In this document: piece by piece, positions 16,301-59,310 of the stretch
Layout of the letters: each line of letters starts with the position of its first letter
How positions within the stretch are numbered: position 1 is the first letter of the stretch
DNA from: a virus
Taxonomy: Duplodnaviria > Heunggongvirae > Uroviricota > Caudoviricetes
Reading direction: 5' to 3' (one strand)
DNA length: 64,000 nucleotides
IMG/VR virus record: IMGVR_UViG_3300027710_000009
The notes under the pieces: model-generated
Database searches by the model: none
Told to the model about the DNA's origin: nothing
The model's input: only the letters and a program-made list of their open reading frames with translations
Position numbers and translations under genes: made by a program

Positions 16301-19300
16301 ATGTTGCACCATTGGCAGTTACATTTGCAAGTGCAGTTGTGCCAGTTACTGCCAATCCAGACAGTGTACCAATAGTAGTGATGTTGGTTTGGCTGGCATC
16401 AAGCACGGCACCGCGTATGTTGGTAAATGTACCAGTTGCGCCACTAACGTTGCCAGTTGTGACATTGCCTGTCACGCCAAGTGAAATTAATGTGCCAACT
16501 GACGTGATATTTGTTTGACTAGCAGTTTGTAGTGTACCATACACATCGGTAAACACACCATTTGTTGCAGTGACATTGGCATTGGCAGATACATTTTCAC
16601 CACGTACTAAAGTTGTAGCAGTGACATTTGCAAAATGACCAGTTGTGGCATTGACATTGCCTGCATCAACATTGCCAGTCACATCCAAGGTAGTCAAAGT
16701 GCCTACACTGGTAATGAAAGGTTGTGCGTTGTTTAGAACAGTACCAGTAAAGCTAACCAAATTGGCAATACCAGTCACTGTTAGATTAGAAGTTGTTAGA
16801 TTTGCTGTAGCGGTAATATTCTCTACAGCAAATGCAGATCCTGCACCACCGCCTTGGATTACCAATCCGCCAACGGTTGCTGTGCCAGTTACATTCAAAT
16901 TGCCAAGATTACCAACAGTGGTGATGTTGGGTTGTGATGCAGTGAGAACAGTTCCAACAATATTGGTAAATGATCCAGTAGTGCCACTTACATTGCCTGT
17001 GCCAACATTGCCTGTTACAGACAATGTGCCTAGTGTACCAACTTGAGTAATGTTTGGTTGTAGTGCTGTACGCAACGAACCTGACAGGCCAGTAAATTCA
17101 CCAACTGTGGCTATTACGTTCCCAGACGCAAACACATGTTCTGGTCGTAATATTTGGATGTTACCGTTGGTTGCGTTTATGTCTTGTATTGTAGCGCCAG
17201 CTACTGTAATGTTGGCTGCTGTCACTGCACCGGTTGTTGTAACAGAAGTCAGTGTACCAACGCTTGTGATATTTGGCTGTGCGGCTGTTTCTAGTGTTCC
17301 GCCAACAATGCTGAACGATCCTTTAGAGCCACTTACATTGCCTGTACTCACATTGCCTGCAATGGCAAATGCGTTTGGTGTGGTCCATACACCATCATAA
17401 ATGGTTAGATTACCGTATGCTCCGCCTTGACCAATAAGTATACCAGAACCACGTGCGGCGGTTGAGTTGACAGCACCATTGGCCAGTGTTAGGTCTTTGT
17501 CGCTGGTGGTTACATTGCCTGCGCTGACCGTGGTGGTGTTGCCGTTTACAAACAAGTTTCCGGTAACATAAAAATCTTGTGCTACAAATTGACTACCAGT
17601 AATACTAACTGGGCCATCAACTGACAATGCTGACAAGGTACCAATAGCGGTAATGAATGGTTGTGCATTGGTTTTAACTGTTCCGTTAAGATCAGTAAAA
17701 TAACCAATGTTGGCAAATACCTCCTCAGTCTTGATGCCCACCGTGGCGTTAACAATATTGCCGTCAATGTTGCCATCTGCATATATTCTGCCCAGGACCC
17801 AAACATTGCCTGAAAGAATATTGCCGGATATTGTGGCAGTAGGACCAGTCAAGTTACCAACCAGTGTAGGGGCTGATATTTGTGTGTTGGCAACAACATT
17901 GGATGCCACAAGATTGCCACTGGTGGTAATTGATGTCAGTGTGCCAACGCTGGTTATATTGGGTTGCTGAGCAGTGAATAGTGTGCCACTAATGTTGCTA
18001 GAAACTAATGTGTTTGCTAGAGTAAAATCACTAACCACAGTGCCAATTACTATGGCACTGTTGACAGAATTGATTATGTTTCCAATAACACCTAGGTTGC
18101 CAACTACTATTAGGCTTGTGAGATTACCAACTGTGGTAATGTTAGGTTGTTCGGCTGTTAATACAGTACCCGAAAGTCCAGCAGCTTGTACCGTACCAGA
18201 AGCAGTTACATTCCCGCTGGTGGTATTGCCAGTAACAGCCAAGTTGACCAATGTACCAACTCGAGTGATGTTGGTTTGTACCGGAGTAATCAAAGTGCCA
18301 GCCACAGTATTAGCTGTCAATCGGTTTGTGGCAATGTTGGCATTAAGGGTGTTGATGTTGCCAGAATCAATATTGCCTGTCACAGCAAGCGAACCAAGAG
18401 TACCAACTGTGGTAATATTTGGTTGTGCAGTTGTGAGCAAGTTTCCAACAATGTTGGTAAATGTACCTGTAGTACCACTTACATTTCCAGTTGTGACATT
18501 ACCTGTCACGGTCAACGATCCAAGCGTACCAACGCCGGTGATACCTGCTTGTACACCATTGGTCAATGTGCCATCAACAACAGATGCAGTTACTCTGCCA
18601 GCAGTGATATTGCCGGAGACCACCAGGTTGCCAAGAGTACCAACTGTGGTAATGTTTGGCTGTGCGGCAGTTTGCACAGTGCCAGACACCACGCTAAAGT
18701 TGCCATGGTAACCTTGGATGTTGCCAACCAAAACGTTGCCTGATAAATTGGGTACTGCGATTGCGGCAATGGCTGCATTGGCCGCGGCAATGTTGGCCTG
18801 CAAAGAACTGATAGCACTGCCTTGTGCTGACGCATTGCTTGTGAGAATATTTAGACTGGTAGTCTGGGCCCCAGCATTGGCTGTGAGCGTGTTAATTTGT
18901 GTTGCTTGTGTTGCGGCATTGGCAGTCCATGCTACAGTAACAGCCGCAATGGCTGCATTGGCCGCATCAATGTTGGCACGTAGTTCAGATATCTGTATGT
19001 TGGCAACTGTTATGTTTGCGGCGGCAATAGCTGAATTGGCCGCGGCAATGTTGGCACGTAGAGAATTGATTGCCAATGCTTGCACACCAGCGTTGCCACT
19101 GGTGCTAGTAGTCAAACTGCTGATTGCTGAATCAGTATAAGCCTTGAGCGCAGAATTTGCTGTTACAATGGCCGCATTGGCTGCTGTGACGTTGGCACGT
19201 ATGCCTGCAATACTATTGTGTTGAGCACCTGCGTTGGCATCTGTTTGTGCTCTCAAAGAAACTATGGCCGCATTGGCTGCTGTGACGTTGGCACGTAGAT

Positions 19301-20174
19301 TGTCAATTTCAACGTTGGCCGCTGACATTTGTGCAGTGGTCACAACACCACTGGTGATTATGGCATTGGCTGCGTTAATGTTTGCTCTAAGAGCATTGAT
19401 CTGGACAGCTTGAGAAACAGCATTGCTCCAGACACTACTGACGTTGGATAGTAGTACGCTGACATTGCTGGTCACTGCTCCAATTGCCAGAGCTTGAGTG
19501 GTAGCATTTGATGTTAAAGTAGTGATGCTACTTTGCACAGATACAATGCTGGAATTTGCCGCTTCAATATTGGCACGTAGGTTGCCAATTTCAACATTGG
19601 CTGCGGCCACACGTGCATTAGCACCCAACACAGCATTGCTGATTGGTGTTAGGTTAACAACAGTGTTCATACTACTGTTGTCAGAGAATCTCAGGGTGTT
19701 GACTGTGAGGGTTTGTCCAACCACAAGGTTTTCGGTGACCGAAGCGGGACCGTCTACAACCAATGCGCCATTCACAGTGGCTGTGTTGGTTACTGTGATG
19801 TTACCAGCAGTGATTTCGGCATTGCTAATGGTAGCATTGGCAATGGTGCCGCCGGTTACAGTTATATTGGGCAATGGGCCCAGACTGCTTATTGCGGCGT
19901 CAGTGTAGGCTCGATCAGCGGCAGAATTTGCTGCCATACTTGAACGCAGTTGGCTTACGTCAACATTGCTTGCTACACCAGTTACGTCAAACCATGCTAG
20001 CTGTACATTACCTTGTTTTCCAGCAACGGAATACACCAACGTGTTGGCTTGAACTGCTACATTTCCGCTGTAGATGTTAGCGAAGTTTTGGTTGACTTTG
20101 TCAAACGCCGTGCGAAGATCATCGCCATCCCCCGCACCAGCGCCACTACCAATATCTATTATCTGCTGAGACAT
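13341..20174 (-). CDS. Giant repetitive fibrous protein (2277 aa), probable long tail fibre or whisker
   Basis: 6.8-kb ORF with a conserved fibre N-terminal motif. There are about 14 copies of a module AQPNIT(S/T)VGTLxxLxVTGNVxxGNVSG, plus an N-proximal array of LRANIxAANAAI coiled-coil repeats. Extreme Ala/Asn/Thr/Val/Gly composition. CATAAATATC lies 20 nt upstream. Confidence 0.6.
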   Translation of the reverse strand: MSQQIIDIGSGAGAGDGDDLRTAFDKVNQNFANIYSGNVAVQANTLVYSVAGKQGNVQLAWFDVTGVASNVDVSQLRSSMAANSAADRAYTDAAISSLGPLPNITVTGGTIANATISNAEITAGNITVTNTATVNGALVVDGPASVTENLVVGQTLTVNTLRFSDNSSMNTVVNLTPISNAVLGANARVAAANVEIGNLRANIEAANSSIVSVQSSITTLTSNATTQALAIGAVTSNVSVLLSNVSSVWSNAVSQAVQINALRANINAANAIITSGVVTTAQMSAANVEIDNLRANVTAANAAIVSLRAQTDANAGAQHNSIAGIRANVTAANAAIVTANSALKAYTDSAISSLTTSTSGNAGVQALAINSLRANIAAANSAIAAANITVANIQISELRANIDAANAAIAAVTVAWTANAATQATQINTLTANAGAQTTSLNILTSNASAQGSAISSLQANIAAANAAIAAIAVPNLSGNVLVGNIQGYHGNFSVVSGTVQTAAQPNITTVGTLGNLVVSGNITAGRVTASVVDGTLTNGVQAGITGVGTLGSLTVTGNVTTGNVSGTTGTFTNIVGNLLTTAQPNITTVGTLGSLAVTGNIDSGNINTLNANIATNRLTANTVAGTLITPVQTNITRVGTLVNLAVTGNTTSGNVTASGTVQAAGLSGTVLTAEQPNITTVGNLTSLIVVGNLGVIGNIINSVNSAIVIGTVVSDFTLANTLVSSNISGTLFTAQQPNITSVGTLTSITTSGNLVASNVVANTQISAPTLVGNLTGPTATISGNILSGNVWVLGRIYADGNIDGNIVNATVGIKTEEVFANIGYFTDLNGTVKTNAQPFITAIGTLSALSVDGPVSITGSQFVAQDFYVTGNLFVNGNTTTVSAGNVTTSDKDLTLANGAVNSTAARGSGILIGQGGAYGNLTIYDGVWTTPNAFAIAGNVSTGNVSGSKGSFSIVGGTLETAAQPNITSVGTLTSVTTTGAVTAANITVAGATIQDINATNGNIQILRPEHVFASGNVIATVGEFTGLSGSLRTALQPNITQVGTLGTLSVTGNVGTGNVSGTTGSFTNIVGTVLTASQPNITTVGNLGNLNVTGTATVGGLVIQGGGAGSAFAVENITATANLTTSNLTVTGIANLVSFTGTVLNNAQPFITSVGTLTTLDVTGNVDAGNVNATTGHFANVTATTLVRGENVSANANVTATNGVFTDVYGTLQTASQTNITSVGTLISLGVTGNVTTGNVSGATGTFTNIRGAVLDASQTNITTIGTLSGLAVTGTTALANVTANGATFKDINATYANIGSEANIAGNVTAGNISASKGTFTQVQGTLQTNSQPFITEVGLLGNLDVAGTVLAPAVGNVSTLLRGYIVNNFQPNITELGALTSLSVINVVNTANITAAGAVLRDLNVTTANITLEANIGGNVTSANISAFKGTFTHIDGTLLTNAQPFITSIGTLPNLSVTSNIGVGNVNAVSTNTTGNSVSANTQVTGTAQIANLTVSGNTALVNNVNALSSLNVTNQLIVLGSNVNAFSANFQASSASITNTLSVDTLFVRSTAESIEAATGALQVAGGLGVVGNVSVDGLITSQGNLRSAKSLEVLDSAFIGNSIYLNDIGGGGGTGIYSNVANVSLFPSSVTNLDIGGEATLINVGAISGLGITRVRNNLLVDGSFFIATVGNIGSGNVTVNNDLRVLNNANVINSFTTNTLTATNSTSGSVTANVVTVADVVTVGNLSAAANATSLSTGALRVRGGISATGNIIVGFGNVGYNAGKEIVYINSNVAQITAANIQQLSGALQVRGGASIGGNLYVAGEATIIGNVNFTAFLAASINNTPIGNATPSSGAFTTLAIGAGNVRPPSRPAISFDFANSRKLDTILNFSRTGTATYYDARGFLVTAPSQTPRFTYDPSTLRSRGILIEESRTNLYRESNSFGNANVYTTLQASITTVAHATSSPDGNYNAFKLVEDSSTGLHAVYQQAPYVPTISAGTTYTASAFVKRGERDQVSLVFFAESNPAIFDLTNGTIDFQGPDYRSSMQTLANGWYRIQSTINKTNTSGNVAIASATGGSVYYTGNGTNGVYIYGFQVEEGGFATSYIPTTTIANTRSSESLTVSSIEFLRRYNQVENSVLVDATLDYNPSTLVDNNRRSTIVSFNDGTASNRIAILAETKSATAERTANLIIVKAGTVESNANITLGNLTTVVNNNRLASYFQSGTLATAANGTGTTTAVAGNVSSSINTMNIGSGPGTNFINGTIAKIQVWPALVTGSQLSTLTQ
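15600..18700 (-). repeat. Protein-level tandem module repeats inside the 2277-aa fibre gene
   Basis: Recurring (A/S)QPNIT-VGTL ... TGNV-TGNVSG-TG-FTNI modules in the translation. All plus-strand ORFs across this region are mirror-frame artefacts. Confidence 0.6.
18760..19640 (-). repeat. Nucleotide-level tandem repeats (~60-90 nt units) encoding LRANIxAANAAI coiled-coil repeats
   Basis: Repeated strings aatggc(t/c)gcattggc(c/t)gc...aatgttggcacgtag are visible at 18770, 18950, 19030, 19160 and 19270. Confidence 0.6.
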
Positions 20175-26471: not shown

Positions 26472-26501
26472 ATTATAGCATACTATTACTTATTTTGTCA
26501 A
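26472..26501 (-). promoter_or_regulatory. Sigma70 early promoter (TTGACA-N18-TATAAT)
   Basis: Minus strand: TTGACAAAATAAGTAATAGTATGCTATAAT. Confidence 0.5.
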
Positions 26502-40158: not shown

Positions 40159-40257
40159 TTGAAAATTTCCTTTTTGAAAATGTGCGCTGTTACGCAACAC
40201 ATGGATTATATATGCTGGTTACTACTGATGTCAAATAAAAAGGCACCAAAGCGACTG

Positions 40258-43052: not shown

Positions 43053-43461
43053 ATGGTTGTTTATTTGACAGGGTAAGTCCTACCCCGCTGGTTTCGCTGT
43101 TTAGGCGAAAGCTGCCTCAGTGCGAGCAGACTTGGAACCGCCGAAACGGAAACCTTTGCCTACTGTTACTTTAACACCAGATTGTGTATTTGCTTTTGCA
43201 TTTACTTTTTTTGCGTCTACGGCCGAGTTCCCCCAACCCTACGGTTTCTGCCTTACCGTGCTGTCCACTTGCTTACTCTTTGCCCTGTCGAAACCATGAC
43301 TGGCCCATCATAAAAGGACTAGTGCAAACACTACCAGTACAACAACTACCCCTATCGCCAAACTACCCAGGTTGTCATTCATACCAATCTCCTTATGGTG
43401 GACCAGGCGGGAGTCGAACCCGCGTCCAGAACACTTTTCTATCCGCTTCATACAGCAATAA
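43027..43461 (-). ncRNA. ssrA: Circularly permuted (two-piece) tmRNA gene, organised as acceptor piece, then spacer, then coding piece
   Basis: The 3' end, ...UCUGGACGCGGGUUCGACUCCCGCCUGGUCCACCA at 43396, is nearly identical to the tmRNA 3' end GGACGCGGGUUCAACUCCCGCCAGCUCCACCA. An 89-nt spacer follows. Then GGGCCAGUCAUGGUUUCGACAGGG at 43306 matches the tmRNA 5' end GGGGCUGAUUCUGGAUUCGACGGG. The two form a 7-bp acceptor stem with a G3:U70 pair. Downstream, UAGAC-GCA introduces an open tag frame with no start codon, ending ...TEAAFA-UAA. The gene has its own promoter and terminator. Confidence 0.7.
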
Positions 43462-43466
43462 CTTAC

Positions 43467-43495
43467 AGTATATATTTATTCAGGGGAGTTGTCAA
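43467..43495 (-). promoter_or_regulatory. Sigma70 promoter of the tmRNA gene (TTGACA-N17-TATACT)
   Basis: Minus strand: TTGACAACTCCCCTGAATAAATATATACT. The predicted transcription start is about 65 nt upstream of the CCA end. Confidence 0.55.
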
Positions 43496-45496: not shown

Positions 45497-46573
45497 TTAA
45501 AAGGCGTAGTAGTTGAAGGGTTTTTCCTTGTCACGTACCAGCACCAGCTGATCGCCTTTGTGGTTAACAAACACAAACCGGCCTTCGGTTGGATCAACCT
45601 TCTTCAAGTCACGTTGCTTGAACTGCATGTCGTACCAGTCAGCCTCGTCGTTGTCTGGCTCAGGGTCGTAACCGTAGTGCCAGGTCTTCTCGGTCATTGG
45701 GTTGCCCTTCCACTGCACACTGCCTTCCAGCTGACGTTCAGTCAGCGGTTCAGTTGCACCCACAGGCACCACTGCAACCTTGTACAAGCTACCGTCGTCA
45801 AACTCAGGCTTGGCGTTCAGCATCTGCATGGCTTCCTGTGCAGACTCGTTGTAGCGATTCATTTCTTCAACCAAGGCCTTGAGCATGTCAAAGTTGAACT
45901 CAGCAAACAATGAACCCACTGTGCAAACACCATCGATGTTCTTCAGGCTGGCATCCTTGAGATTGTCGTAGCAGTACTCACGAATGAACTCTTGGTCCAA
46001 GCCCTTGAAGTCCAGCATGTAGAAGATACGACCCGGACGATTACGCATGTGTTGGTTCACACGCCATTTGTCGTTGCAGGTGATCAGGAACAGCTTCTTT
46101 GAAGGGAACACACCGTCCAACAGTGTAAGCATTTCTTCCTGCTCATCGCTGTCGTAGACCTTTTCAAACTCGTCGAACAACACCATGCAAGGTTGGCTGA
46201 TGTCTTGTAGCAGGCTGTTGAAAGCCTCACCACGCCAAGGTTGATTGATTAGTAAGGTAGGAATACCTGCTTCTGCACACTTGACAGCCAAGCTCTTGGC
46301 CAGCATGGTCTTGCCTGAACCCTTCTCACCTGTGAGCATGACGCCTGTGCTCACAGCACGATCCTCAAAGGTGTTGAAGATGCGGTCACGATGGCGTAGT
46401 GCATCACCGTAGACCTTGCCCTTGATTTCAAAGCTGTCCACAGTCTCCAAGAAGAAGTTGCCAAACTGATCCTGCTTAACAATGTAGTTGCCAGCAGGTA
46501 GGCTGTCTTTGATGTCCAAGCTGTCCTTGTCAGCAACCTTGTAGGTGTTGCCGCTTTTGATAAAATAGCTCAT
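45497..46573 (-). CDS. AAA+ ATPase
   Basis: Walker A GEKGSGKT, Walker B CMVLFDEFEK, and sensor region ITCND. Start refined to MSYFIK (46573). Confidence 0.7.
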   Translation of the reverse strand: MSYFIKSGNTYKVADKDSLDIKDSLPAGNYIVKQDQFGNFFLETVDSFEIKGKVYGDALRHRDRIFNTFEDRAVSTGVMLTGEKGSGKTMLAKSLAVKCAEAGIPTLLINQPWRGEAFNSLLQDISQPCMVLFDEFEKVYDSDEQEEMLTLLDGVFPSKKLFLITCNDKWRVNQHMRNRPGRIFYMLDFKGLDQEFIREYCYDNLKDASLKNIDGVCTVGSLFAEFNFDMLKALVEEMNRYNESAQEAMQMLNAKPEFDDGSLYKVAVVPVGATEPLTERQLEGSVQWKGNPMTEKTWHYGYDPEPDNDEADWYDMQFKQRDLKKVDPTEGRFVFVNHKGDQLVLVRDKEKPFNYYAF

Positions 46574-46582
46574 TTTGTACTT

Positions 46583-46607
46583 CCAAAAAGTGGGGGACTT
46601 GGCCCCC
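46583..46607 (-). terminator. Hairpin plus U-run between rIIB and the ATPase gene (terminator or attenuator)
   Basis: Minus strand: GGGGGCCAAGUCCCCC-ACUUUUUGG. Confidence 0.4.
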
Positions 46608-46615
46608 GGGTTCAA

Positions 46616-52030: not shown

Positions 52031-52058
52031 AAAAAAACCCCTGTAAAAACAAGGGTTT
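52031..52058 (-). terminator. Intrinsic terminator (AAACCC...GGGTTT hairpin with a T-run on the minus strand)
   Basis: Minus strand: AAACCCUUGUUUUUACAGGGGUUUUUUUGUGGCUUUUUU. Confidence 0.45.
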
Positions 52059-52081: not shown

Positions 52082-53236
52082 TTAGTGGAACATTAAGAAA
52101 CTGTTGATCACGTCCAGTCTGTTGGCAGCACGGTCTCCGTGTCCAGCTGGAAAAATCACCACGTTCCATTTGGGTTTGGGTCCTTCTGGAATGGTCAACA
52201 TCTGATCATAGGTAATGATGGTGTTGGGATCCACGTTGTGCATGGAACCAAGTTTTTGTTTGAATTCATCCCAGGCTTCGGGGCTGGCAATTTGTGTGCG
52301 ACCTTTTTCGTCTTTCACATACTTGCCTTTGGCATCAGTCACAAACAAAGTACGGAACATGTCTTTGGGCACAGTGATTGCATCCTTGACCACGTTGCCG
52401 GCTTGTTTGTGTACAGCCACTTTCTTGACTTCGCGACTTTGAGATCCTGAGCTGAAGTTCACAATAAAGTTGGCAGGTTTGCTGCCTGTGGCCACATCAC
52501 CCATCTTGGTGTAGGCATAGAACTTCACATCAGGATTACCATTGGCCACACCATATGCAAGATCTAAGTATTCTTTGGAGAAGAAGTCACCGGCATCATG
52601 CCAGCGTACTACCAGTCTAATACCATGCTTGTCTGTTTTACCTTTGAGTGCTTTGACTTCACGATCTACCATGGCCATGTATCCTTTGGGATCATTGACC
52701 AAGAAGTTCAGTGCTTGTGCCGCGCTCATTGAGCTGGCAGGGAACATCACATAACCACCTTTTCTAGCGTAACAAAACAACTGGCATTCGCCTGCACCTG
52801 GACAGGTCTTGATTTCCACAAAGTCGCCGTTCTCTTCATCCACCACTATGCCTGAAAGTGCTGGTAGCGTAAGGTCATAAATGATTTCGCCTTCAGTAGC
52901 ACTCTTTTCCATTTTAGCATTGGTGCCAAGAATTTTACTAGGGCGTTTCATAATCTGTTGGGCTAGATCATCTAGATCCCATTTGTCGTCTGGATTGTCG
53001 CTTTGTGTGATAGCTTTGATGTTGCTACCATGAACAATTGGTGAAAACCTGTCACGCTTGGTCTTGGTGCCAGTTTTGATACGGTCAGCGTAGCCTTGTA
53101 ATTCGTCACGTGGCATAACACGACTGGGTGCATTGAGTTTGAGTGCTTCTTCAACGTCCTGGTCCTCAATGTCTAGGGGTTGGACTTGAAATCCTCCAAG
53201 TGTACGTGCTTCTGTTACAAGTTCTGTGTATCTCAT
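52082..53236 (-). CDS. Hypothetical protein (384 aa), N-terminus MRYTELVT
   Basis: ORF. The N-terminus is paralogous to the gene upstream of it. Confidence 0.45.
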   Translation of the reverse strand: MRYTELVTEARTLGGFQVQPLDIEDQDVEEALKLNAPSRVMPRDELQGYADRIKTGTKTKRDRFSPIVHGSNIKAITQSDNPDDKWDLDDLAQQIMKRPSKILGTNAKMEKSATEGEIIYDLTLPALSGIVVDEENGDFVEIKTCPGAGECQLFCYARKGGYVMFPASSMSAAQALNFLVNDPKGYMAMVDREVKALKGKTDKHGIRLVVRWHDAGDFFSKEYLDLAYGVANGNPDVKFYAYTKMGDVATGSKPANFIVNFSSGSQSREVKKVAVHKQAGNVVKDAITVPKDMFRTLFVTDAKGKYVKDEKGRTQIASPEAWDEFKQKLGSMHNVDPNTIITYDQMLTIPEGPKPKWNVVIFPAGHGDRAANRLDVINSFLMFH

Positions 53237-54174
53237 TTTCTTTTTGCCTTTGCTCTGCCGCTTTTCATATTGGCCATCCAGTGTGCTAGTTGCCCTTTAC
53301 GGCCGCCCTGCTTGGCTACTTTTCTTAATGTACTTATGCTTGCTTTGGTTGGTACACCATGACGTTTTGAGTCGCCTTTGTCCTGTGGGTTTTTGCCATC
53401 GTGGAAGTTTTCTGCTATACCTTGTGCTCTAGTCAGTTGATATATAACCACATCGCCTTCGTCACTGTGTTGAGACTGATAACCCCAGGCACCAGCATAT
53501 CGTTGTACCAGTCTAGTGTATAACTTGGCACGGCTTTCAGGATTGAATCGTTCAACGTCGTCTGCGTCCATGTCCACTGATTTGCTTGCCGAGAAACTTA
53601 GTTGTTGTGGTTTGTATTTTTTAATGTATTTTTGTATAGCATCTAGCACGGTGGCGAAAATGCGCTGTGCATCGCCCTCACCGGTAACTTCCTGGCTGTT
53701 GTTTCTGTGGAACTCAACATGAATGACTTCTTCGCCTTCTCCGTCATATTCTTGATTGAACATGATGTTGAGATATGTGCCGTCGGGTAATTTTGCGTTT
53801 ACATCAATGTCGCCATAGTCTGACTTTTCCCACTTGCCTTTGTAAGGGTTGTCAAAGGCTTCGTTTAGACCAAAGCCTTCACGCACAGCATTCATTAGTT
53901 CACTCACACTGGCTTCTGTGTTGGGCAAGCTGTCTTGTTCGCCAATGTATGGATCACCTTCTTCTACTGTTCCGAGGGCATAGGTAAACATATCATTACC
54001 CCTATTATCGATAATAACCATGTACCATTCGTCGTCTATCTGTCCTTTGGTGCTGAACATAAAGGCTCCGTCGTCTCGACGTTGGCCTTTCCAGCCCATA
54101 GCTTTCATTGCGCCGTTGACTTTGCCAACAACTTCGGGCCATGGTAATGTAGTGACTAGCTCACGATATCTCAT
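53233..54174 (-). CDS. Hypothetical protein (313 aa), N-terminus MRYRELVT
   Basis: ORF with a Lys/Arg-rich C-terminal tail. Confidence 0.45.
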   Translation of the reverse strand: MRYRELVTTLPWPEVVGKVNGAMKAMGWKGQRRDDGAFMFSTKGQIDDEWYMVIIDNRGNDMFTYALGTVEEGDPYIGEQDSLPNTEASVSELMNAVREGFGLNEAFDNPYKGKWEKSDYGDIDVNAKLPDGTYLNIMFNQEYDGEGEEVIHVEFHRNNSQEVTGEGDAQRIFATVLDAIQKYIKKYKPQQLSFSASKSVDMDADDVERFNPESRAKLYTRLVQRYAGAWGYQSQHSDEGDVVIYQLTRAQGIAENFHDGKNPQDKGDSKRHGVPTKASISTLRKVAKQGGRKGQLAHWMANMKSGRAKAKRK

Positions 54175-54524
54175 TGTATGATCTCCGGATGAGATCTTAC
54201 ATAGATCTTTACAATCATGCCAGCCGCCATGTCTGCTTGGCTTTCTACATCTGCTAGGTCAGCCTTGGTGCCGTCCTGACCTTGTTTGTGATGCGCTAGT
54301 TCATGCGCAATAGTACGCATGATATCAATCAAGTTACGGTTGCCAGTGTAGATCCAAAGTTTGTTGGTACCAGGATTGTAGTAGCCAGTACGAACTTGAT
54401 CAGCGCCTTCTTTTTGTTGGGCATATTCAATCTCAGGCATGCTGCCTGTGATATGTAATTTTTCAAATACAAACTTGATAAAGTCCTGTATCTGGTCATT
54501 GTGAGCAAATTCAATTGACTTCAT
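54171..54524 (-). CDS. Small HExxH zinc-metallopeptidase-like protein
   Basis: IAHELAHHKQ. Translationally coupled to the upstream genes. Confidence 0.5.
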   Translation of the reverse strand: MKSIEFAHNDQIQDFIKFVFEKLHITGSMPEIEYAQQKEGADQVRTGYYNPGTNKLWIYTGNRNLIDIMRTIAHELAHHKQGQDGTKADLADVESQADMAAGMIVKIYVRSHPEIIQ

Positions 54525-55431
54525 TTTGTATTGCTTTCTTAATTAGGGTGTCCAACTGACTTACAATTTCTTCAGTTATGTGATGACTCAGAATCTTTTG
54601 ATACAGCACCGCATTGTTGGTCAACAGTCGGTCAATCACCCGACTGAGATTAGTGTCTATCATCCACTGAGTTACTACTTGTTTGATTGTTCGTGCGCGA
54701 AGTTCAAAATCATCTACTGTTGTTATATCAAGTTGTTTTATAATTTGATCAACTAAATCGTCCCCGTGATGATTAAGTTTGTCCCCTAGCACATATGGCA
54801 GTAGTTTTACATTATCATCACTTATTGACGGAATGTCTAGAATGATTGTAATGGTCCAATAGCTGAGCCTACTAAACCATGCATTCCACATCACGTCCTT
54901 GAAACATCTTTTTAGGTCTACCTTGAGAGTTTGAATTATTTGTGCATGTACTTGTTCTGTCTGCTCAACACCCATGTGTACTGCTAGTGCTGGCAAATTT
55001 TTAGTAATGTTTTGTATTTCATTCAAGGCAAATATAAAATCAAACTCTGGATATAATTTTTTGAATTCATAAACAGATTGTTTACACATCAAATTTGCAT
55101 TGTTGAAATACCCATGTCCGCAAATGTTACCTCCAGACGTCAGTTCATAAACTGTGCCTGTTTTTTTGTGCTTGACCCAGGCTGCAGGATGCATGAGTTG
55201 TAATGCAAATTCGGGCACACGCGGCAACCATGGATCGTCACTAACAACACCCGGAACATAACACCGGTGTGCAGGTATATCATCAAATACCATATGATTG
55301 TGATCAAGTTGGTGGCTGTTGGACTCTGTAGTGCAATGCACTGATATCAAGTCTTGATCCAACACACAATGCGAATCAAGATTCTTAACAGAAGTAGGAC
55401 GATGGGTGCTGTTGATTAGTTTGGTTATCAT
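54511..55431 (-). CDS. Hypothetical protein (306 aa), coupled to the nucleotidyltransferase gene
   Basis: ATGA start/stop overlap with the nucleotidyltransferase gene. His/Cys-rich N-terminal region. Confidence 0.45.
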   Translation of the reverse strand: MITKLINSTHRPTSVKNLDSHCVLDQDLISVHCTTESNSHQLDHNHMVFDDIPAHRCYVPGVVSDDPWLPRVPEFALQLMHPAAWVKHKKTGTVYELTSGGNICGHGYFNNANLMCKQSVYEFKKLYPEFDFIFALNEIQNITKNLPALAVHMGVEQTEQVHAQIIQTLKVDLKRCFKDVMWNAWFSRLSYWTITIILDIPSISDDNVKLLPYVLGDKLNHHGDDLVDQIIKQLDITTVDDFELRARTIKQVVTQWMIDTNLSRVIDRLLTNNAVLYQKILSHHITEEIVSQLDTLIKKAIQNEVN

Positions 55432-56132
55432 TGACTTTCCAAACTAAACTCAGCTGTTTTCAACTGTGTGATTTTGTCTCTAAGATCTTGCAAATCGCCT
55501 TCGGCTCTGAGCAATTTGAATGTGATGTTTTCTGGAGAGAATTCTCCTCCGCGGGCCAGTCCTGCCTTGCGCATGTCTCTGATCTGATCCCACACATGTC
55601 GCACTTGTTTTGCATCATCACTGCGTATGGCTCGCACAATACGAGCCTTGTAACTGCGATACTTGTGTTCCACGCTGGCGTCATCAATGTTGGCTTTGAC
55701 TTGCTTGGGCTGGCTTAACCAACGATCATATTTGATACTGTAAATGCCCATGCTGTGATGTGGCTGTTCAGCATCTTGAACATACAACTCTACATCAAAC
55801 CCTTTTATGCGAAAATCAAATTGTTCGTTATATTGGTATTTTTTTGCATCAAACAGCTCACGCAACTCTGGATCATGTGCTTCTGGAATCATGGCCACAA
55901 GATGCAGATCAATATCAGAATTTGGTGTGTAAGTAAAAGCGGCGTTGCTACCGCTGATGGTAACATCTAGAATGTCGTACAACTGCACTCCAATAAACTC
56001 TTGAAAGTCTTTGGCAATGTTCAGTAGTTTTTGCCTGACGTCTGGCAACAGCTTGTTATCCGCCCAAAGAGCAGGATTAAGCTGGTCATGAAACACCACA
56101 GCAGGTGTTAAGTCAAATTCTTGTAGTCTCAT
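55428..56132 (-). CDS. Pol-beta-superfamily (MNT-type) nucleotidyltransferase
   Basis: ISGSNAAFTYTPNSDIDLHLV matches the G-S-x(9-13)-D-x-D nucleotidyltransferase signature. Confidence 0.55.
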   Translation of the reverse strand: MRLQEFDLTPAVVFHDQLNPALWADNKLLPDVRQKLLNIAKDFQEFIGVQLYDILDVTISGSNAAFTYTPNSDIDLHLVAMIPEAHDPELRELFDAKKYQYNEQFDFRIKGFDVELYVQDAEQPHHSMGIYSIKYDRWLSQPKQVKANIDDASVEHKYRSYKARIVRAIRSDDAKQVRHVWDQIRDMRKAGLARGGEFSPENITFKLLRAEGDLQDLRDKITQLKTAEFSLESQ

Positions 56133-56185
56133 CTAGCACCCCGAATGTTATATTTATTTGGGGTGCCAGTATTGGAACATTTAGG

Positions 56186-56776
56186 TTATCGCTTGTCTAG
56201 TACCCGATCTGCAAGCCCGTATGCCACGGCCTCTTGTGCGCTCATGAAGTTGTCACGTTCCATGTCTGCCAAAATTTCATCGTAAGTACGCCCCGCAGTG
56301 TTGTGATCCACGTAGATTTGCGTTAGATTGCGCTTCATTTTGAGGATTTCACGCACCTGGATTTCCATGTCTGTAGCTTGGCCACCAGCACCACCCGAAG
56401 GCTGATGAATCATGTGACGTGCATTGGGCAGTATAAGACGCTTGCCAGCGGCTCCTGCTTGAGCTAGCAAACTGCCCATGGAGCAGGCCTGCCCCATCAC
56501 AATAGTAGATATGTTAGGTCGAATAAACTGCATAGTGTCATAGATAGCCATGCCAGCAGTAACCACCCCACCAGGGCTGTTGATATAGAACAGAATATCT
56601 GCATCTGGATCTTCGCTTTCGAGAAACAATAGTTGAGCCACAATCAAACTAGCAGAATGCTCGTTGACATCTGTGTCTAGCATGACAATACGGTCTTTGA
56701 GCAGGCGACTGTAGAGATCATAACTGCGCTCGCCTGCTGATGTGCGTTCAAGCACCATGGGTACCAAATTTGGCAT
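56186..56776 (-). CDS. clpP: ATP-dependent Clp protease proteolytic subunit ClpP
   Basis: Full-length ClpP with the catalytic triad context GQACSMGS...HQP...D. A perfect sigma70 promoter lies upstream. Confidence 0.9.
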
Positions 56777-56813
56777 TGAAAACTCCTGGTTGAATTATAT
56801 TGGATTATAGACG

Positions 56814-56842
56814 ATTATAGACAACTATAGACCAGCTGTCAA
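56814..56842 (-). promoter_or_regulatory. Consensus sigma70 promoter upstream of clpP (TTGACA-N17-TATAAT)
   Basis: Minus strand: TTGACAGCTGGTCTATAGTTGTCTATAAT. Confidence 0.55.
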
Positions 56843-57421: not shown

Positions 57422-58000
57422 TTATTGTGGAGTCACAGTAACTGGTTTGTCCATTTCCTGGAAAGCTTCACGTGCTCGCCCTGCTGTGGTTTTGCGCACA
57501 GCTTCGTCCACTTTTTCACGACGTAGTACGTTGGCTTCGCCCATGGGCAATGCTACTAGTACATAACTACGGAAGCGACTGCCTTCGGAAATACGCTTGA
57601 TTTCCTTGACTTCCACGCCAGTGATATCCACTTTACGGCACATGGAACGAATAGCCATTTCACTGTTTTCTGCAGACGTTTCGCCCACATCCTGACGGAA
57701 CACACGGCTCTGCTTGTCCACTTCGCCGCCTGCTGCCATACACACCTTGCCAAATGCAATTACCTTGGCTTTTTCATCTGCCATGGCAAAGTCTGGGCTG
57801 GTTGCAGTACCGCTGGAATAAACTGCGGCAGTGCTTGTGGGCAATTCAGTCATCCATTTAGGAGCCTTGTCAATTGCTCGTTCTGCGTATTTCTCACGCT
57901 TTTCTTGTTCAGCTTCTGCTCGCTTTTGATACGGGTCAGACGTTGAACTACAGCCGGCCAGCACGGCAAGAACAGCACTAGCAATTAGAATACGTTTCAT
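57422..58000 (-). CDS. Lipoprotein (about 190 aa)
   Basis: Lipobox LAVLAGCSS after MKRILIASAV. Start refined to 58000, with TAATG coupling to the entericidin-like gene. Confidence 0.5.
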   Translation of the reverse strand: MKRILIASAVLAVLAGCSSTSDPYQKRAEAEQEKREKYAERAIDKAPKWMTELPTSTAAVYSSGTATSPDFAMADEKAKVIAFGKVCMAAGGEVDKQSRVFRQDVGETSAENSEMAIRSMCRKVDITGVEVKEIKRISEGSRFRSYVLVALPMGEANVLRREKVDEAVRKTTAGRAREAFQEMDKPVTVTPQ

Positions 58001-58122
58001 TATTTGCCACCTAATTTTTCTTTGGACCATTCGGCACCAGATGTAATATCCTTACCAACTCCTGCTACCGTTGAGCAGGCAGTAAGGGCCAGGGTTACTA
58101 ACAACACAAACACAGTTTTCAT
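58000..58122 (-). CDS. Entericidin-like small lipoprotein (40 aa; not in the ORF track)
   Basis: Own translation: MKTVFVLLVTLALTACSTVAGVGKDITSGAEWSKEKLGGK. Matches the EcnA/B pattern (signal, lipobox C, then G-x-G-x-D). Coordinates approximate. Confidence 0.45.
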   Translation of the reverse strand: MKTVFVLLVTLALTACSTVAGVGKDITSGAEWSKEKLGGK

Positions 58123-58155
58123 ACAACACCTTTCGGTACGAGTTACGATAGTTCA

Positions 58156-58185
58156 ATTATACACGAAATGGAAGTTAATTGTCAA
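58156..58185 (-). promoter_or_regulatory. Sigma70 early promoter (TTGACA-N18-TATAAT)
   Basis: Minus strand: TTGACAATTAACTTCCATTTCGTGTATAAT. Lies upstream of the lipoprotein cluster. Confidence 0.5.
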
Positions 58186-58769
58186 CCTCGAAAATGTTCC
58201 CATTTCTCAATCACTTTCCATTGTCCAGAATGTGGACCTCTTTGCAGTTTACAAATAATGCCACGATTCTGTAACAGACCTATTCCATATGTGACTGTTT
58301 CCAAAAATCTACGGCATTCGTATCCTTTGTATGGAAAACTGCCTGGATGGTCTGGATCAGGGGCAACTTCACTTTCTCTGACCAAATCACCTGCCTTGAC
58401 CGTTTTCAATTTTGGAATGTCTTGGTCTGTGCAAATTAGTTCTTGATAGGCCGAAGTACTGGATCCACTGATCTGTTGCATTAATCTTGCTCGGCCTGCA
58501 TCCTGTGCCATGGCACAAACTTGATGGTCTGGAATCAAATCACCTTGTGCTCGTCCTTGTGCAGTGTACCAGGTGTTGTCTATCATCAGTCGCCAGGTCA
58601 CGGTGCATTGTGTCACACGTTCATTCAGTTGTATCACTTCACGCACAGGCTCACTTTGGCGTTGCACTCGTGCCTTGAGATCGTTTATGGTACTACTGCG
58701 ATAATAGCATTCGGCACCCACGGCACCAGACGCCAGTACAAACAACAGTGGAATTAGTCTATACACCAT
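58182..58769 (-). CDS. Secreted protein with signal peptide
   Basis: N-terminus MVYRLIPLLFVLASGAVGA. Confidence 0.45.
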   Translation of the reverse strand: MVYRLIPLLFVLASGAVGAECYYRSSTINDLKARVQRQSEPVREVIQLNERVTQCTVTWRLMIDNTWYTAQGRAQGDLIPDHQVCAMAQDAGRARLMQQISGSSTSAYQELICTDQDIPKLKTVKAGDLVRESEVAPDPDHPGSFPYKGYECRRFLETVTYGIGLLQNRGIICKLQRGPHSGQWKVIEKWEHFRG

Positions 58770-59089
58770 TCGTAGTTCCTCATTTTACGGCGCACAATAG
58801 CATTGTGCCACCCTGAGTCAACTTCGACTCGTTGTGAATAAGTGCCTTCACTCACCGCAAATATTTTACCAAGCCAGTTGCTCATGACCAAACGGTTGTC
58901 GTTGAGTGTTGCACTACCAACCATTTGTTTTTCTAAAAATTCTTTTTGCGATTCTTTCTGCTTGCAATCAGTTCGATAATGCATGAGATCTTGAGTGGGC
59001 ATGATCACAGTATGTTGGCCCGGCTGTGAAGCACAACCAACCAACAGCATCAGCGCACAGGTCGCAAGCAGGTGCTTCTTATAGTCCAT
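58754..59089 (-). CDS. Lipoprotein
   Basis: Lipobox LLVGCAS. Confidence 0.45.
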   Translation of the reverse strand: MDYKKHLLATCALMLLVGCASQPGQHTVIMPTQDLMHYRTDCKQKESQKEFLEKQMVGSATLNDNRLVMSNWLGKIFAVSEGTYSQRVEVDSGWHNAIVRRKMRNYEWCID

Positions 59090-59310
59090 ATCAGTTCCTT
59101 GGCTTGTGCTACATAACGGCGTTCATATTCGCTACGATTTGCATCATAGCCCCCTTGAGCCAACTGAGCTTCCAACCAACGTATCTGAAGTCCAGGATTT
59201 GAACAATCCGGTTTCAGCATGCTGATGTCGTCTCTGTTGACTCCTGCTTGTGGAACCGATGCACAGGCTGTCGCAAGCAAACAAACTGGCAGTATCAGTT
59301 TCGATACCAC
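59050..59310 (-). CDS. Lipoprotein
   Basis: Lipobox LLATACAS. Confidence 0.4.
   Translation of the reverse strand: MVSKLILPVCLLATACASVPQAGVNRDDISMLKPDCSNPGLQIRWLEAQLAQGGYDANRSEYERRYVAQAKELIWTIRSTCLRPVR

Follow-up and report, generated by a model that had tools for sequence, protein, structure and literature searches.

Does a tightly packed run of genes in an uncultivated jumbo phage, in which a ClpP protease subunit is followed by a nucleotidyltransferase (NT234), a 306-aa orphan (U306) and a small metallopeptidase (M117), encode one system or several adjoining ones? These genes, two more that follow them (U313 and a GP88-family gene) and the promoter in front of ClpP all lie on the minus strand of the window, by which we mean the whole 64,000-nt stretch of DNA that was analysed, and gene calls made independently on other contigs agree with them. 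The original prediction had taken the first four genes as one operon and as a possible anti-defence or proteostasis-hijacking system. Its gene identifications stood, while its end point at 54171 did not, as the coupled block runs on through U313 and GP88. The locus is best read as containing no new four-part anti-defence system. The account that we favour, with moderate confidence, is of two adjoining minus-strand units, a ClpP unit and a five-gene block led by NT234, and with the same degree of confidence we read the whole locus as a ClpP unit beside an 'unbundled' giant polyvalent phage protein.

ClpP and its predicted sigma70 promoter

The consensus sigma70-type promoter claimed earlier (TTGACA-17-TATAAT, by motif match) is present 5' of ClpP at 56842..56814 on the minus strand. 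Perfect consensus sites of this kind number four in the window, all on that strand, where shuffled sequences lead one to expect 0.06. The SprT-like gene upstream has its stop codon within the -35 hexamer of the ClpP promoter, whose -10 region is spanned by three tandem ~10-nt GTCTATA(A/G)T repeats. The gene that it precedes (56776..56186, minus strand) encodes a cellular-type ClpP proteolytic subunit of 196 aa, identified by family models and alignment, with scores of 260.7 bits against Pfam CLP_protease PF00574 (cut-off 20.2), 300.6 bits against NCBIfam NF001368 (cut-off 249) and 249.5 bits against E. coli ClpP 1tyf. Its identity to the solved ClpP 8r05 is ~62% along the whole protein (counted from the alignment), which together with the Pfam and NCBIfam matches bears out the description of a full-length ClpP. 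Since its score against the strict equivalog model TIGR00493 (285.8 bits) falls under the cut-off of 308.6, we regard it as a divergent subfamily member. In the alignment to 8r05 the catalytic motifs are intact (Ser in GQACSMG, His in MIHQP, Asp in ERDNF), and the N-terminal loop for unfoldase docking (LVPMV..T..GERSYD) is conserved. We also considered a prohead (head-maturation) protease and rejected it, the match to NF045542 (101.5 bits) being below its cut-off of 120 and the neighbours being a SprT-like gene, lipoprotein genes and the nucleotidyltransferase block, with no capsid genes.

In line with the original prediction, which spoke of a ClpP without ClpX, the 64-kb window holds no ClpX-like unfoldase gene, and its sole AAA+ protein (45497-46615) is generic. 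The ClpP and SprT-like peptidases of jumbo phages have already been catalogued (PMC7824862), and the gene is best read as a phage-borne ClpP of this known kind. It resembles the catalogued examples in being a patchily distributed, cellular-type ClpP with no obvious phage unfoldase, and in adjoining a SprT-like zincin, as in group 1 and group 2.2 jumbo phages; it differs by the nucleotidyltransferase block immediately 3', the perfect sigma70 promoter and a permuted tmRNA. We propose that this ClpP is host-derived and catalytically intact, that host RNA polymerase presumably transcribes it early from its promoter, and that it would serve as a separate auxiliary protease subunit relying on host ClpX or ClpA, its adjacency to the block being probably lineage-specific rather than mechanistic.

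The coupled five-gene block

ClpP and NT234 are separated by a 53-nt spacer that forms a conserved hairpin with a second, phage-type promoter motif, and are not translationally coupled. The hairpin (56133..56169, minus strand; RNA dG -20.1, z -3.99) abuts the NT234 start codon and covers the ribosome-binding region with its 3' arm, and its loop holds AATAAATAT (56158..56150), a NATAAATA late-promoter-like motif. It is kept in three related loci (L005, L026 and L021), including one C-G to U-A compensatory change, and in L021 it stays by the nucleotidyltransferase gene even though a GNAT gene parts that gene from ClpP. ATAAATA occurs ten times on the minus strand of the window, nine times in intergenic positions 8-30 nt 5' of start codons or an RNA gene, and the genes so preceded include 2,110-aa, 307-aa and 2,277-aa virion genes, the tmRNA and NT234. 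Among 70 distinct related loci, TAAATA[CT] lies within 40 nt 5' of the nucleotidyltransferase ORF in 52 (1.2% expected), although in many relatives only 5-12 nt part it from the ATG, an unusually short distance for a promoter. Both NATAAATA and TATAAATA are late promoters of T4-like phages (PMC2984593). We infer from these motifs that the block has its own NATAAATA promoter of T4 late type, common to giant virion genes, and that the phage probably uses two promoter classes, the sigma70 consensus and NATAAATA in hairpins. The surroundings of the block are early-type, with sigma70 promoters and rIIA/B, and the virion genes of the window are ~32 kb away.

NT234 (56132..55428, minus strand) carries the predicted Pol-beta motif, GS-x10-DID, at residue 61 and a third acidic residue at E115, and so has the features by which the Pol-beta superfamily is recognized (hG[GS]-x9-13-DhD plus a third acidic residue on an alpha/beta core). 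The core is followed by a C-terminal four-helix domain of ~85 residues, and the score against Pfam NTP_transf_2 (17.1 bits) lies under the cut-off of 21; the 'MNT-type' label given to it earlier is only loosely true. NT234 belongs to phrog_36119, and the family led by this domain covers at least 596 viral contigs and 938 protein clusters, with members in T4-like cyanophages, Lak megaphages, Caulobacter phage Cr30 and Maribacter phage Molly, and carries no annotation in any database searched. Two other identities were rejected: NT234 lacks the two-lobed CD-NTase fold with an effector or SAVED partner that CBASS would call for, and it has no significant sequence or full-length structural match to aminoglycoside or lincosamide nucleotidyltransferases (ANT, KNTase, Lnu), which leaves the kanamycin-nucleotidyltransferase-like resistance gene, once offered as an alternative, unsupported.

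From NT234 onwards the genes overlap. The ATGA overlap of NT234 with U306 and the 14-nt overlap of U306 with M117 agree with the original prediction, and the coupling continues beyond 54171, where U313 and the GP88-family gene each join by a further ATGA. U306 (55431..54511, minus strand; an ORF of 306 aa) is an orphan. It had been described as His/Cys-rich, and its composition (5.2% His and 2.0% Cys, clustered in the first 120 residues) fits this, while the only invariant His and Cys residues are C57, H106 and H152. Its C-terminal half is predicted to be helical and its N-terminal third is poorly predicted; no fold match was found, nor any match in a phage-protein search, and among 1.84 billion proteins its homologues amount to 15 representatives, an identical protein being encoded on a 371 kb contig. 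Neither U306 nor U313 received a family assignment from Pfam/PHROG profile searches.

M117 (54524..54171, minus strand) is indeed a 117-aa protein with HELAHH, and represents a minimal metallopeptidase domain of gluzincin type, its sequence combining HExxH (H74, E75, H78) with a downstream Glu (E94) as the third zinc ligand. These residues and Q81 are invariant, the four catalytic ones across 17 solo and fused homologues, and its family matches are weak (DUF6782, 23.1 bits against a cut-off of 27; phrog_87 'metallo-protease', E 1.5e-5). U313 (54174..53233, minus strand) has a central domain related to phrog_16075/6387, with a weak match to DUF6934, and ends in a basic tail (residues ~250-313). 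The block closes with a gene (53236..52082, minus strand) assigned to the GP88 family by its Pfam match (PF17338; 108.3 bits, cut-off 24.4). An intrinsic-terminator-like hairpin with a 10-bp stem and a following T run (52058..52035, minus strand) lies 24 nt past the GP88 stop codon; it is the first strong hairpin of this kind after the coupled block and probably marks the 3' end of the transcription unit.

Fused and split forms in related loci

An HMM/phmmer scan of 105 related viral loci (labelled L-numbers) matched the nucleotidyltransferase in 98, M117 in 65, the U313 tail in 42, GP88 in 17, ClpP in 9 and U306 in 6. In ~55 of the 105, the nucleotidyltransferase and M117 matches fall within one ORF of 700-2,100 aa (for example 2,082 aa in L057 and 2,092 aa in L059), with the nucleotidyltransferase as the N-terminal domain and the M117 domain directly behind it, and ~20 of these giant ORFs also bear a U313-type tail, which in L024 recurs as the C-terminal end of a dCMP deaminase. 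A domain scan of five giant ORFs found Amidoligase_2 in all five and dCMP/cytidine deaminase, GNAT or ParB_N in individual ones. Two contigs, identical though they come from two samples (L007 and L013), encode an 883-aa protein with the nucleotidyltransferase, M117, a second, minimal nucleotidyltransferase and the U313 tail, in that order. GP88 homologues lie at most ~1 kb 3' of the nucleotidyltransferase-led ORF in ~14 of the 17 loci that match GP88, abutting or overlapping it in ~10. The recurring unit is the nucleotidyltransferase with M117, joined by the U313 tail and GP88 in part of the loci, and it is usually one giant protein.

This arrangement recalls the polyvalent proteins of phages and conjugative elements, in which a zincin-like metallopeptidase (MPTase) hub is joined to disparate enzymes in one chain, and of which solo versions occur in related elements (PMC5512222). 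The likeness extends to the giant homologues that join unrelated enzyme domains around a constant zincin-like partner, to the solo versions of the same domains, to GNAT, ParB-like and Pol-beta nucleotidyltransferase domains as listed components of the class, and probably to late expression. The hub is present, as the M117 domain of the giant ORFs. A chain of two or more disparate domains is found in the ~55 related loci and is absent from the window, where the domains occupy separate, translationally coupled genes, so that the window locus is a 'solo-domain' relative rather than a strict member. The link to the class rests on architecture, not homology, because the giant ORFs contain no LPD-type Pfam domain at E <= 0.001 and their amidoligase is not mentioned in the 2017 survey (PMC5512222). 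The window nucleotidyltransferase, with its Pol-beta core and helical domain, also differs from the minimal ArdC-linked firmicute enzyme of that survey, and whereas phage polyvalent genes typically adjoin late or virion genes (PMC5512222), the window block is not beside virion genes, and packaging of its products is a prediction by analogy. The survey itself likened polyvalent proteins to eukaryotic RNA-virus polyproteins (PMC5512222); the giant relatives share with these the disparate activities in one chain with an embedded peptidase, and differ in their unrelated domains, peptidase class and DNA genome, while the window would reach the result of a single chain through translational coupling.

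On the polyvalent reading, the five proteins would be an effector enzyme set made together, late and possibly also early through read-through from the ClpP promoter, which the spacer hairpin, having no U-tract, would permit. By analogy with polyvalent proteins, they may work as the phage enters the host or soon afterwards, or serve to remodel the host. The predicted task of NT234 is to move a nucleotide onto a protein, nucleic-acid or small-molecule target, and M117 would be a processing or effector peptidase. U306 is fast-evolving, is found always directly 3' of solo nucleotidyltransferase genes and is missing from all fused forms, and is thus left unexplained by the polyvalent model; it may be a lineage-specific, quickly changing accessory. 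Split and fused forms could have arisen from one another by either fission or accretion.

The T4 internal proteins and Alt are virion-packaged, protease-processed anti-defence or host-modifying proteins. The phage P1 DarA-operon protein DdrB, as cited in PMC5512222, is of the same type. The block proteins may likewise be late-made effectors, cut by a peptidase and carried into the host along with the DNA, and are without sequence homology to any of these. A short conserved N-terminal peptide on several window proteins loosely recalls the T4 capsid-targeting sequence, although it is one residue out of register with that sequence, and the T4 L/I-x-E cleavage rule does not fit three of the four window proteins that carry the peptide.

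If the polyvalent reading is true, the window shows a giant polyvalent protein taken apart by nature into genes that can be expressed separately. The nucleotidyltransferase, the zincin and the accessory proteins could then each be cloned and tested alone, a difficult task for chains that reach 2,100 aa. As the nucleotidyltransferase-led family is large and unannotated, finding the target of the enzyme would annotate a widespread phage function, and the family bears domains, such as the amidoligase, beyond the list of the original survey. The two predicted promoter classes, ClpP and the permuted tmRNA offer handles on regulation and host takeover in an uncultivated jumbo phage. These findings extend known themes and overturn no current concept.

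Alternative roles for the locus

The alternative that survives best, although we think it unlikely, is that the block is a module for nucleotide/NAD-type metabolism or for nucleic-acid or small-molecule modification rather than a set of host-protein-targeting effectors. NT234 would then nucleotidylate a metabolite, an antibiotic or a nucleic-acid end, and its variable partners would supply adjoining chemistry. The partners seen are of a suitable kind: GNAT is fused to the nucleotidyltransferase or M117 in P0098, P0118 and P0133 and adjacent in L014 and L021, NUDIX+GNAT occurs in L008, an NT5C nucleotidase is fused to M117 in L026 and adjacent in Flavobacterium phage immuto, dCMP/cytidine deaminases occur in L024, L059 and L069, a cytidylyltransferase in S-CRM01 and S-SRM01, and MazG in S-SRM01.

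A conflict or host-takeover role for the locus is plausible, and the original prediction had cast ClpP, NT234, U306 and M117 as one anti-defence or proteostasis-hijacking system, akin to CBASS or MNT/HEPN toolkits, in which ClpP redirects ClpX/ClpA. The genes share a strand and may share read-through transcripts from the early promoter, the window offers no unfoldase of its own, and the phage also encodes a tmRNA; the order ClpP-NT-U306-M117 is retained in the close clade of the window (L005, L021/22 and L026/27) and nowhere else, and ClpP lies within ~2.6 kb of the nucleotidyltransferase gene in distant relatives as well (L014-L018, 33-37% nucleotidyltransferase identity), so that there may be some functional link. 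The case that the prediction had named as its refutation, synteny absent from all other genomes, thus did not arise. The wider survey does not favour a self-contained four-gene system: ClpP is near the nucleotidyltransferase in only 9 of the 105 loci and missing from every locus with the fused form, U306 occurs in 6, and the nucleotidyltransferase and M117 are usually fused. NT234 has its own promoter motif, the hairpin moves with the nucleotidyltransferase and not with ClpP, and in L021 the GNAT gene and two small ORFs part the two. PADLOC models gave no meaningful match to the locus proteins, among which no HEPN, SAVED or cGAS-like/CD-NTase fold was found, and the proposed kinship with CBASS or MNT/HEPN systems is not supported. 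In contrast to MntA-HepT and AbiEii/MenT, the block has no HEPN partner, Rx4-6H being absent from U306 and from the C-terminal domain of NT234, and MntA-HepT is a two-gene toxin-antitoxin pair where the window has a phage late-type unit. We accordingly see little chance that the four genes form one such system.

A similarly slim chance attaches to a narrower version, in which NT234, U306 and M117 form an undescribed counter-defence trio that makes up a 'modify-and-degrade' system with ClpP and possibly the tmRNA. In it, a host immune or toxin protein would be nucleotidylated by the nucleotidyltransferase and thereby inactivated, on the model of MntA and HepT. Target recognition would fall to U306, whose very fast evolution would reflect an arms race, components would be activated or released through the zincin, and the modified targets would be cleared by the phage ClpP, possibly with the tmRNA.

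Still less probable, and entirely inferential, is an axis in which the phage tmRNA tags proteins for a protease built on the phage ClpP, with the block proteins as regulated Clp substrates or adaptors through an N-terminal M-[KR]-x-x-E-[FL]. The window does contain a permuted tmRNA (97.3 bits) along with the intact ClpP, and this N-terminus is found in four of the six genes from ClpP to GP88, as against one of ~99 other ORFs, and is conserved in the nucleotidyltransferase and M117 families. These families keep it even without a nearby ClpP, however, and the tmRNA lies 13 kb off under its own promoter, its predicted tag ends in AAFA rather than the canonical LAA, and no adaptor homology was seen.

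That the genes are merely unrelated accessory ORFs, tightly packed as is usual in phage genomes, fits the start/stop codon overlaps frequent across the whole window and the lack of family assignments for U306 and U313, and is highly improbable, being largely refuted by dozens of independent loci in which the nucleotidyltransferase is fused with M117 and the U313 tail, by the closeness of GP88 to the nucleotidyltransferase-led ORF and by the confinement of U306 to the position directly after the nucleotidyltransferase.

Gene order and predicted promoters of the locus

The locus is best read as the solo-gene form of an uncharacterised, widespread family of nucleotidyltransferase (NT)-led polyvalent proteins, and it lies beside a ClpP gene of a known jumbo-phage type. 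On the minus strand, to which all window coordinates here refer, ClpP (196 aa, 56776..56186) is followed after a 53-nt spacer by the Pol-beta-fold nucleotidyltransferase NT234 (56132..55428), the 306-aa protein U306 (55431..54511), the 117-aa HExxH protein M117 (54524..54171), the 313-aa protein U313 (54174..53233) and a GP88-family protein (PF17338, 53236..52082), with a terminator-like hairpin (52058..52035) at the end of the coupled block. ATGA overlaps join NT234 to U306, M117 to U313 and U313 to GP88, while U306 and M117 overlap by 14 nt. The same gene set was recovered from independent gene calls on other contigs bearing an identical U306 protein. The observation behind the original prediction of a four-gene operon was largely confirmed, including its two overlaps, its consensus TTGACA-17-TATAAT promoter (a perfect site at 56842..56814), the motifs GS-x10-DID (beginning at NT234 residue 61) and HELAHH (in M117), and the His/Cys-rich composition of U306 (5.2% His, 2.0% Cys); its interpretation is only partly supported. 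The predicted gene set is real, but the coupled block extends past M117 through U313 and GP88, and ClpP lacks translational coupling to the other genes.

Perfect sigma70 sites (TTGACA-N16-18-TATAAT) occur four times on the minus strand, at 26472-26501, 40205-40234, 56814-56842 and 58156-58185, against 0.06 expected from shuffles, and indicate a strong promoter class, probably early, that the host RNA polymerase reads. At the ClpP promoter (56800-56842), the TGA stop of the upstream SprT-like gene falls within the -35 hexamer, and three tandem ~10-nt repeats, GTCTATA(G/A)T(T/C), cross the -10 region, where they would offer alternative TATAAT boxes spaced by one helical turn.

The ClpP-NT spacer contains a 10-bp hairpin (56169..56133, dG -20.1 kcal/mol, z -3.99) that directly abuts the NT234 start codon and holds AATAAATAT in its loop. 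Three related viral loci (L005, L026 and L021) keep it, and a C-G to U-A change among them is compensatory; the hairpin remains with NT even where a GNAT gene follows ClpP. In L021, which has such a GNAT insertion, the ClpP-proximal spacer (5975-6075) forms a very stable hairpin of its own (dG -37.8 kcal/mol, z -6.45). The sequence ATAAATA occurs ten times on the minus strand of the window, and nine copies (8817, 12896, 20200, 30259, 41895, 42121, 43479, 56157 and 60600) are intergenic and precede a start codon or RNA gene by 8-30 nt, including those of the 2,110-aa, 307-aa and 2,277-aa virion genes, the tmRNA and NT234. Four or five of these nine lie within similar hairpins, the 3' arm stopping just short of the start codon, an unusual promoter-in-hairpin arrangement. 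Of 70 distinct loci among the relatives, 52 have TAAATA[CT] no more than 40 nt before the start of the NT ORF, compared with 1.2% expected. The window motif resembles the late promoters of T4-like phages, which are NATAAATA and TATAAATA (PMC2984593). We infer that the NT block (NT234 through GP88) is under its own late-type promoter and ClpP under a host-type early one; read-through from the ClpP promoter into the block is possible, because the spacer hairpin has no U-tract.

Fused relatives and polyvalent architecture

NT234 falls in phrog_36119, a function-unknown family, and the protein clusters of the NT family number at least 938 and its viral-contig loci at least 596, with members in T4-like cyanophages, Lak megaphages, Caulobacter phage Cr30 and Maribacter phage Molly. 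Its catalytic residues (G61, S62, D73, D75 and E115) are invariant, and the AF2 model (pLDDT 89.6) shows a Pol-beta core with a four-helix C-terminal domain. Every fold match in BFVD was to an uncharacterised protein of this family; an 884-aa protein and an 'amidoligase' fusion were among them. The family profile matched PDB sequences only non-significantly, at the DrrA AMPylation domain (E 0.19), which is suggestive of the shared GS..DxD motif only. An aminoglycoside-resistance reading was considered and rejected.

Using HMMs and phmmer, we surveyed 105 related loci and matched NT in 98, M117 in 65, the U313 tail in 42, GP88 in 17, ClpP in nine and U306 in six. In about 55 loci a single ORF, 700-2,100 aa long, holds both NT and M117, and in about 20 such ORFs the U313 tail is present too. 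In about 14 loci a GP88 gene follows the NT-led ORF within ~1 kb. Two identical contigs from different samples (L007 and L013), for example, encode an 883-aa protein with, in this order, NT, M117, a second minimal NTase and the U313 tail. All five giant ORFs scanned contain Amidoligase_2, and individual ones add a dCMP/cytidine deaminase, two GNAT domains or ParB_N. Other relatives have NT-GNAT and NT-DUF5661 fusions, an M117 fused to an NT5C nucleotidase (L026), or GNAT or NUDIX plus GNAT encoded next to NT-led genes. BLASTP of the small genes that follow NT homologues in S-CRM01, DSL-LC02, Cr30 and Molly gave no match to M117, so these phages carry NT alone.

The giant ORFs share the architecture of polyvalent proteins, in which disparate enzymes are combined in one chain with a constant zincin peptidase, and which have solo versions in related elements (Iyer et al. 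2017, PMC5512222). Since this architecture matches, the window carries the unbundled form, with modules joined by translational coupling, whereas those of polyvalent proteins are joined by peptide bonds. The 2017 catalogue has no obvious entry for the NT-led family. That paper makes no mention of amidoligase, a domain of the giant ORFs here, its Pol-beta NTases are of the minimal firmicute type (PMC5512222), unlike NT234, and a search of the giant ORFs for LPD Pfam domains returned no match. It is a large and unannotated family, which the split form makes experimentally tractable; the locus poses no challenge to current concepts.

U306 homologues amount to 15 representatives among 1.84 billion proteins, every one directly downstream of a solo NT gene, and family, PDB and fold searches gave no match for U306, whose model is moderately confident (pLDDT 65.2). 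Between clades (the window versus L005, L021 and L026) identity is 22-31% for U306, 66-73% for NT and 67-86% for ClpP, a sharp local rate acceleration in U306, compatible with an arms-race interface. M117, with H74, E75, H78, Q81 and E94 invariant and weak matches to DUF6782 and phrog_87, is predicted to be a minimal gluzincin. Neither GP88 nor U313 had a significant match among PDB sequences. The basic tail of U313 (residues ~250-313, 53233-53430) has counterparts at 5974-6147 in L024 and 7978-8166 in L007, with the pattern ENF(A/H)DG.NP.DKGD.KRHG..TKAS.S.LRK.AK.GGRKGQLAHW.ANMKSGR.K.KRK and no Pfam family. It is C-terminal in U313 and in the L024 dCMP deaminase and internal in the giant NT-led ORFs, and behaves as a mobile module.

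In Flavobacterium phage vB_FspM_immuto_2-6A (L028 1291-4014, NC_055915.1), a 907-aa protein annotated 'nicotinamide mononucleotide adenylyltransferase, NadR' contains an M117-like zincin segment and is followed by an NT5C nucleotidase; Pfam gave the NadR label no supporting match, returning a weak Peptidase_M91 match only, and the annotation may be wrong.

Proposed function of the block and the place of ClpP

The NT block would be a set of co-expressed effector enzymes, in which NT234 would transfer a nucleotide to an acceptor, M117 would, here and in the fused forms alike, process its partners, or else cut a host protein, U306 would be a lineage-specific, rapidly evolving accessory, and U313 and GP88 would be further modules of the same set. 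These proteins may be packed into virions and injected in the way suggested for polyvalent proteins; the block is not adjacent to virion genes. If the block instead served nucleotide, NAD or small-molecule metabolism, this would suit its NUDIX, NT5C, deaminase, cytidylyltransferase and similar partners, but the presence of an embedded peptidase and of ParB and NTase add-ons makes it an unlikely account.

ClpP itself scored 260.7 bits in Pfam and 300.6 bits against NCBIfam NF001368 (cut-off 249), is ~62% identical over its full length to the solved ClpP 8r05 (counted from the alignment), and retains in that alignment intact Ser, His and Asp motifs and N-terminal loop. Judged by sequence it is a cellular-type ClpP; a prohead-protease reading was rejected, the head-maturation model reaching 101.5 bits, below its cut-off of 120. 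Both ClpP and SprT-like peptidases have been reported as patchily present in jumbo phages (PMC7824862). As had been proposed, no ClpX-like protein was found in the 64-kb window, and the simplest reading of ClpP is as a separate auxiliary subunit working with host unfoldases. That ClpP, NTase, accessory protein and peptidase form one four-gene system, as originally predicted, is slightly less likely still than a metabolic role: the genes do stand together here, but ClpP is rare near NT (adjacency is limited to the window's clade and L014-L018), NT has a predicted separate promoter, and HEPN, SAVED and cGAS folds are missing. Nor did any protein give a meaningful match to a PADLOC defence model; the suggested kinship with CBASS-like or MNT/HEPN toolkits is not supported.

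The peptide M-[KR]-x-x-E-[FL] opens the genes starting at 56132, 54524, 54174 and 53236, and is also seen in L005. Degradation of ssrA-tagged proteins is normally the task of the protease subunit ClpP, and this peptide might serve as the signal of a tmRNA-ClpP proteostasis axis. The motif is real (four of the six genes from ClpP to GP88, against one of ~99 other ORFs), and a permuted tmRNA and ClpP do occur in the same phage, but the motif is shared throughout the NT and M117 families and occurs also in families without ClpP, and we consider such an axis improbable. In a subset of fused forms PST[KR]MFLxE precedes the M117 domain, and the giant ORFs hold 66 copies of the motif versus 38 +/- 6; as a general cleavage-junction signal it was rejected, the enrichment coming mostly from the NT N-terminus and one pre-M117 junction. 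That the genes form no functional unit at all is contradicted by the fusions and very hard to credit.

The surrounding phage genome

The phage behind the window is large and divergent. The long ORFs of the window all lie on one strand, its gene content includes rIIA and rIIB, a DNA ligase, and virion proteins of 1,032, 2,110 and 2,277 aa, and the identical U306 protein is also found on a 371 kb contig. When the 52-58 kb segment was compared by Megablast with 50,697 phage records, nothing matched; the phage is without a close cultured relative. In the virion-gene region, the 2,110-aa ORF (2461-8793) carries YHYH and He_PIG (Ig-like) domains, and the 2,277-aa ORF (13341-20174) had no match in Pfam. 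The permuted, two-piece tmRNA (43171-43457; Rfam RF04321, 97.3 bits versus a gathering score of 47) has an unusual ARAGORN-predicted tag, AKANTQSGVKVTVGKGFRFGGSKSARTEAAFA, and a AATAAATAT motif just upstream, at 43480. A series of small genes (57422-59310) whose products have lipoprotein-type signal peptides, e.g. LAGCSS, LVGCAS and LATACAS, sits just upstream of the SprT-like gene and ClpP and is kept in L005 and L021.
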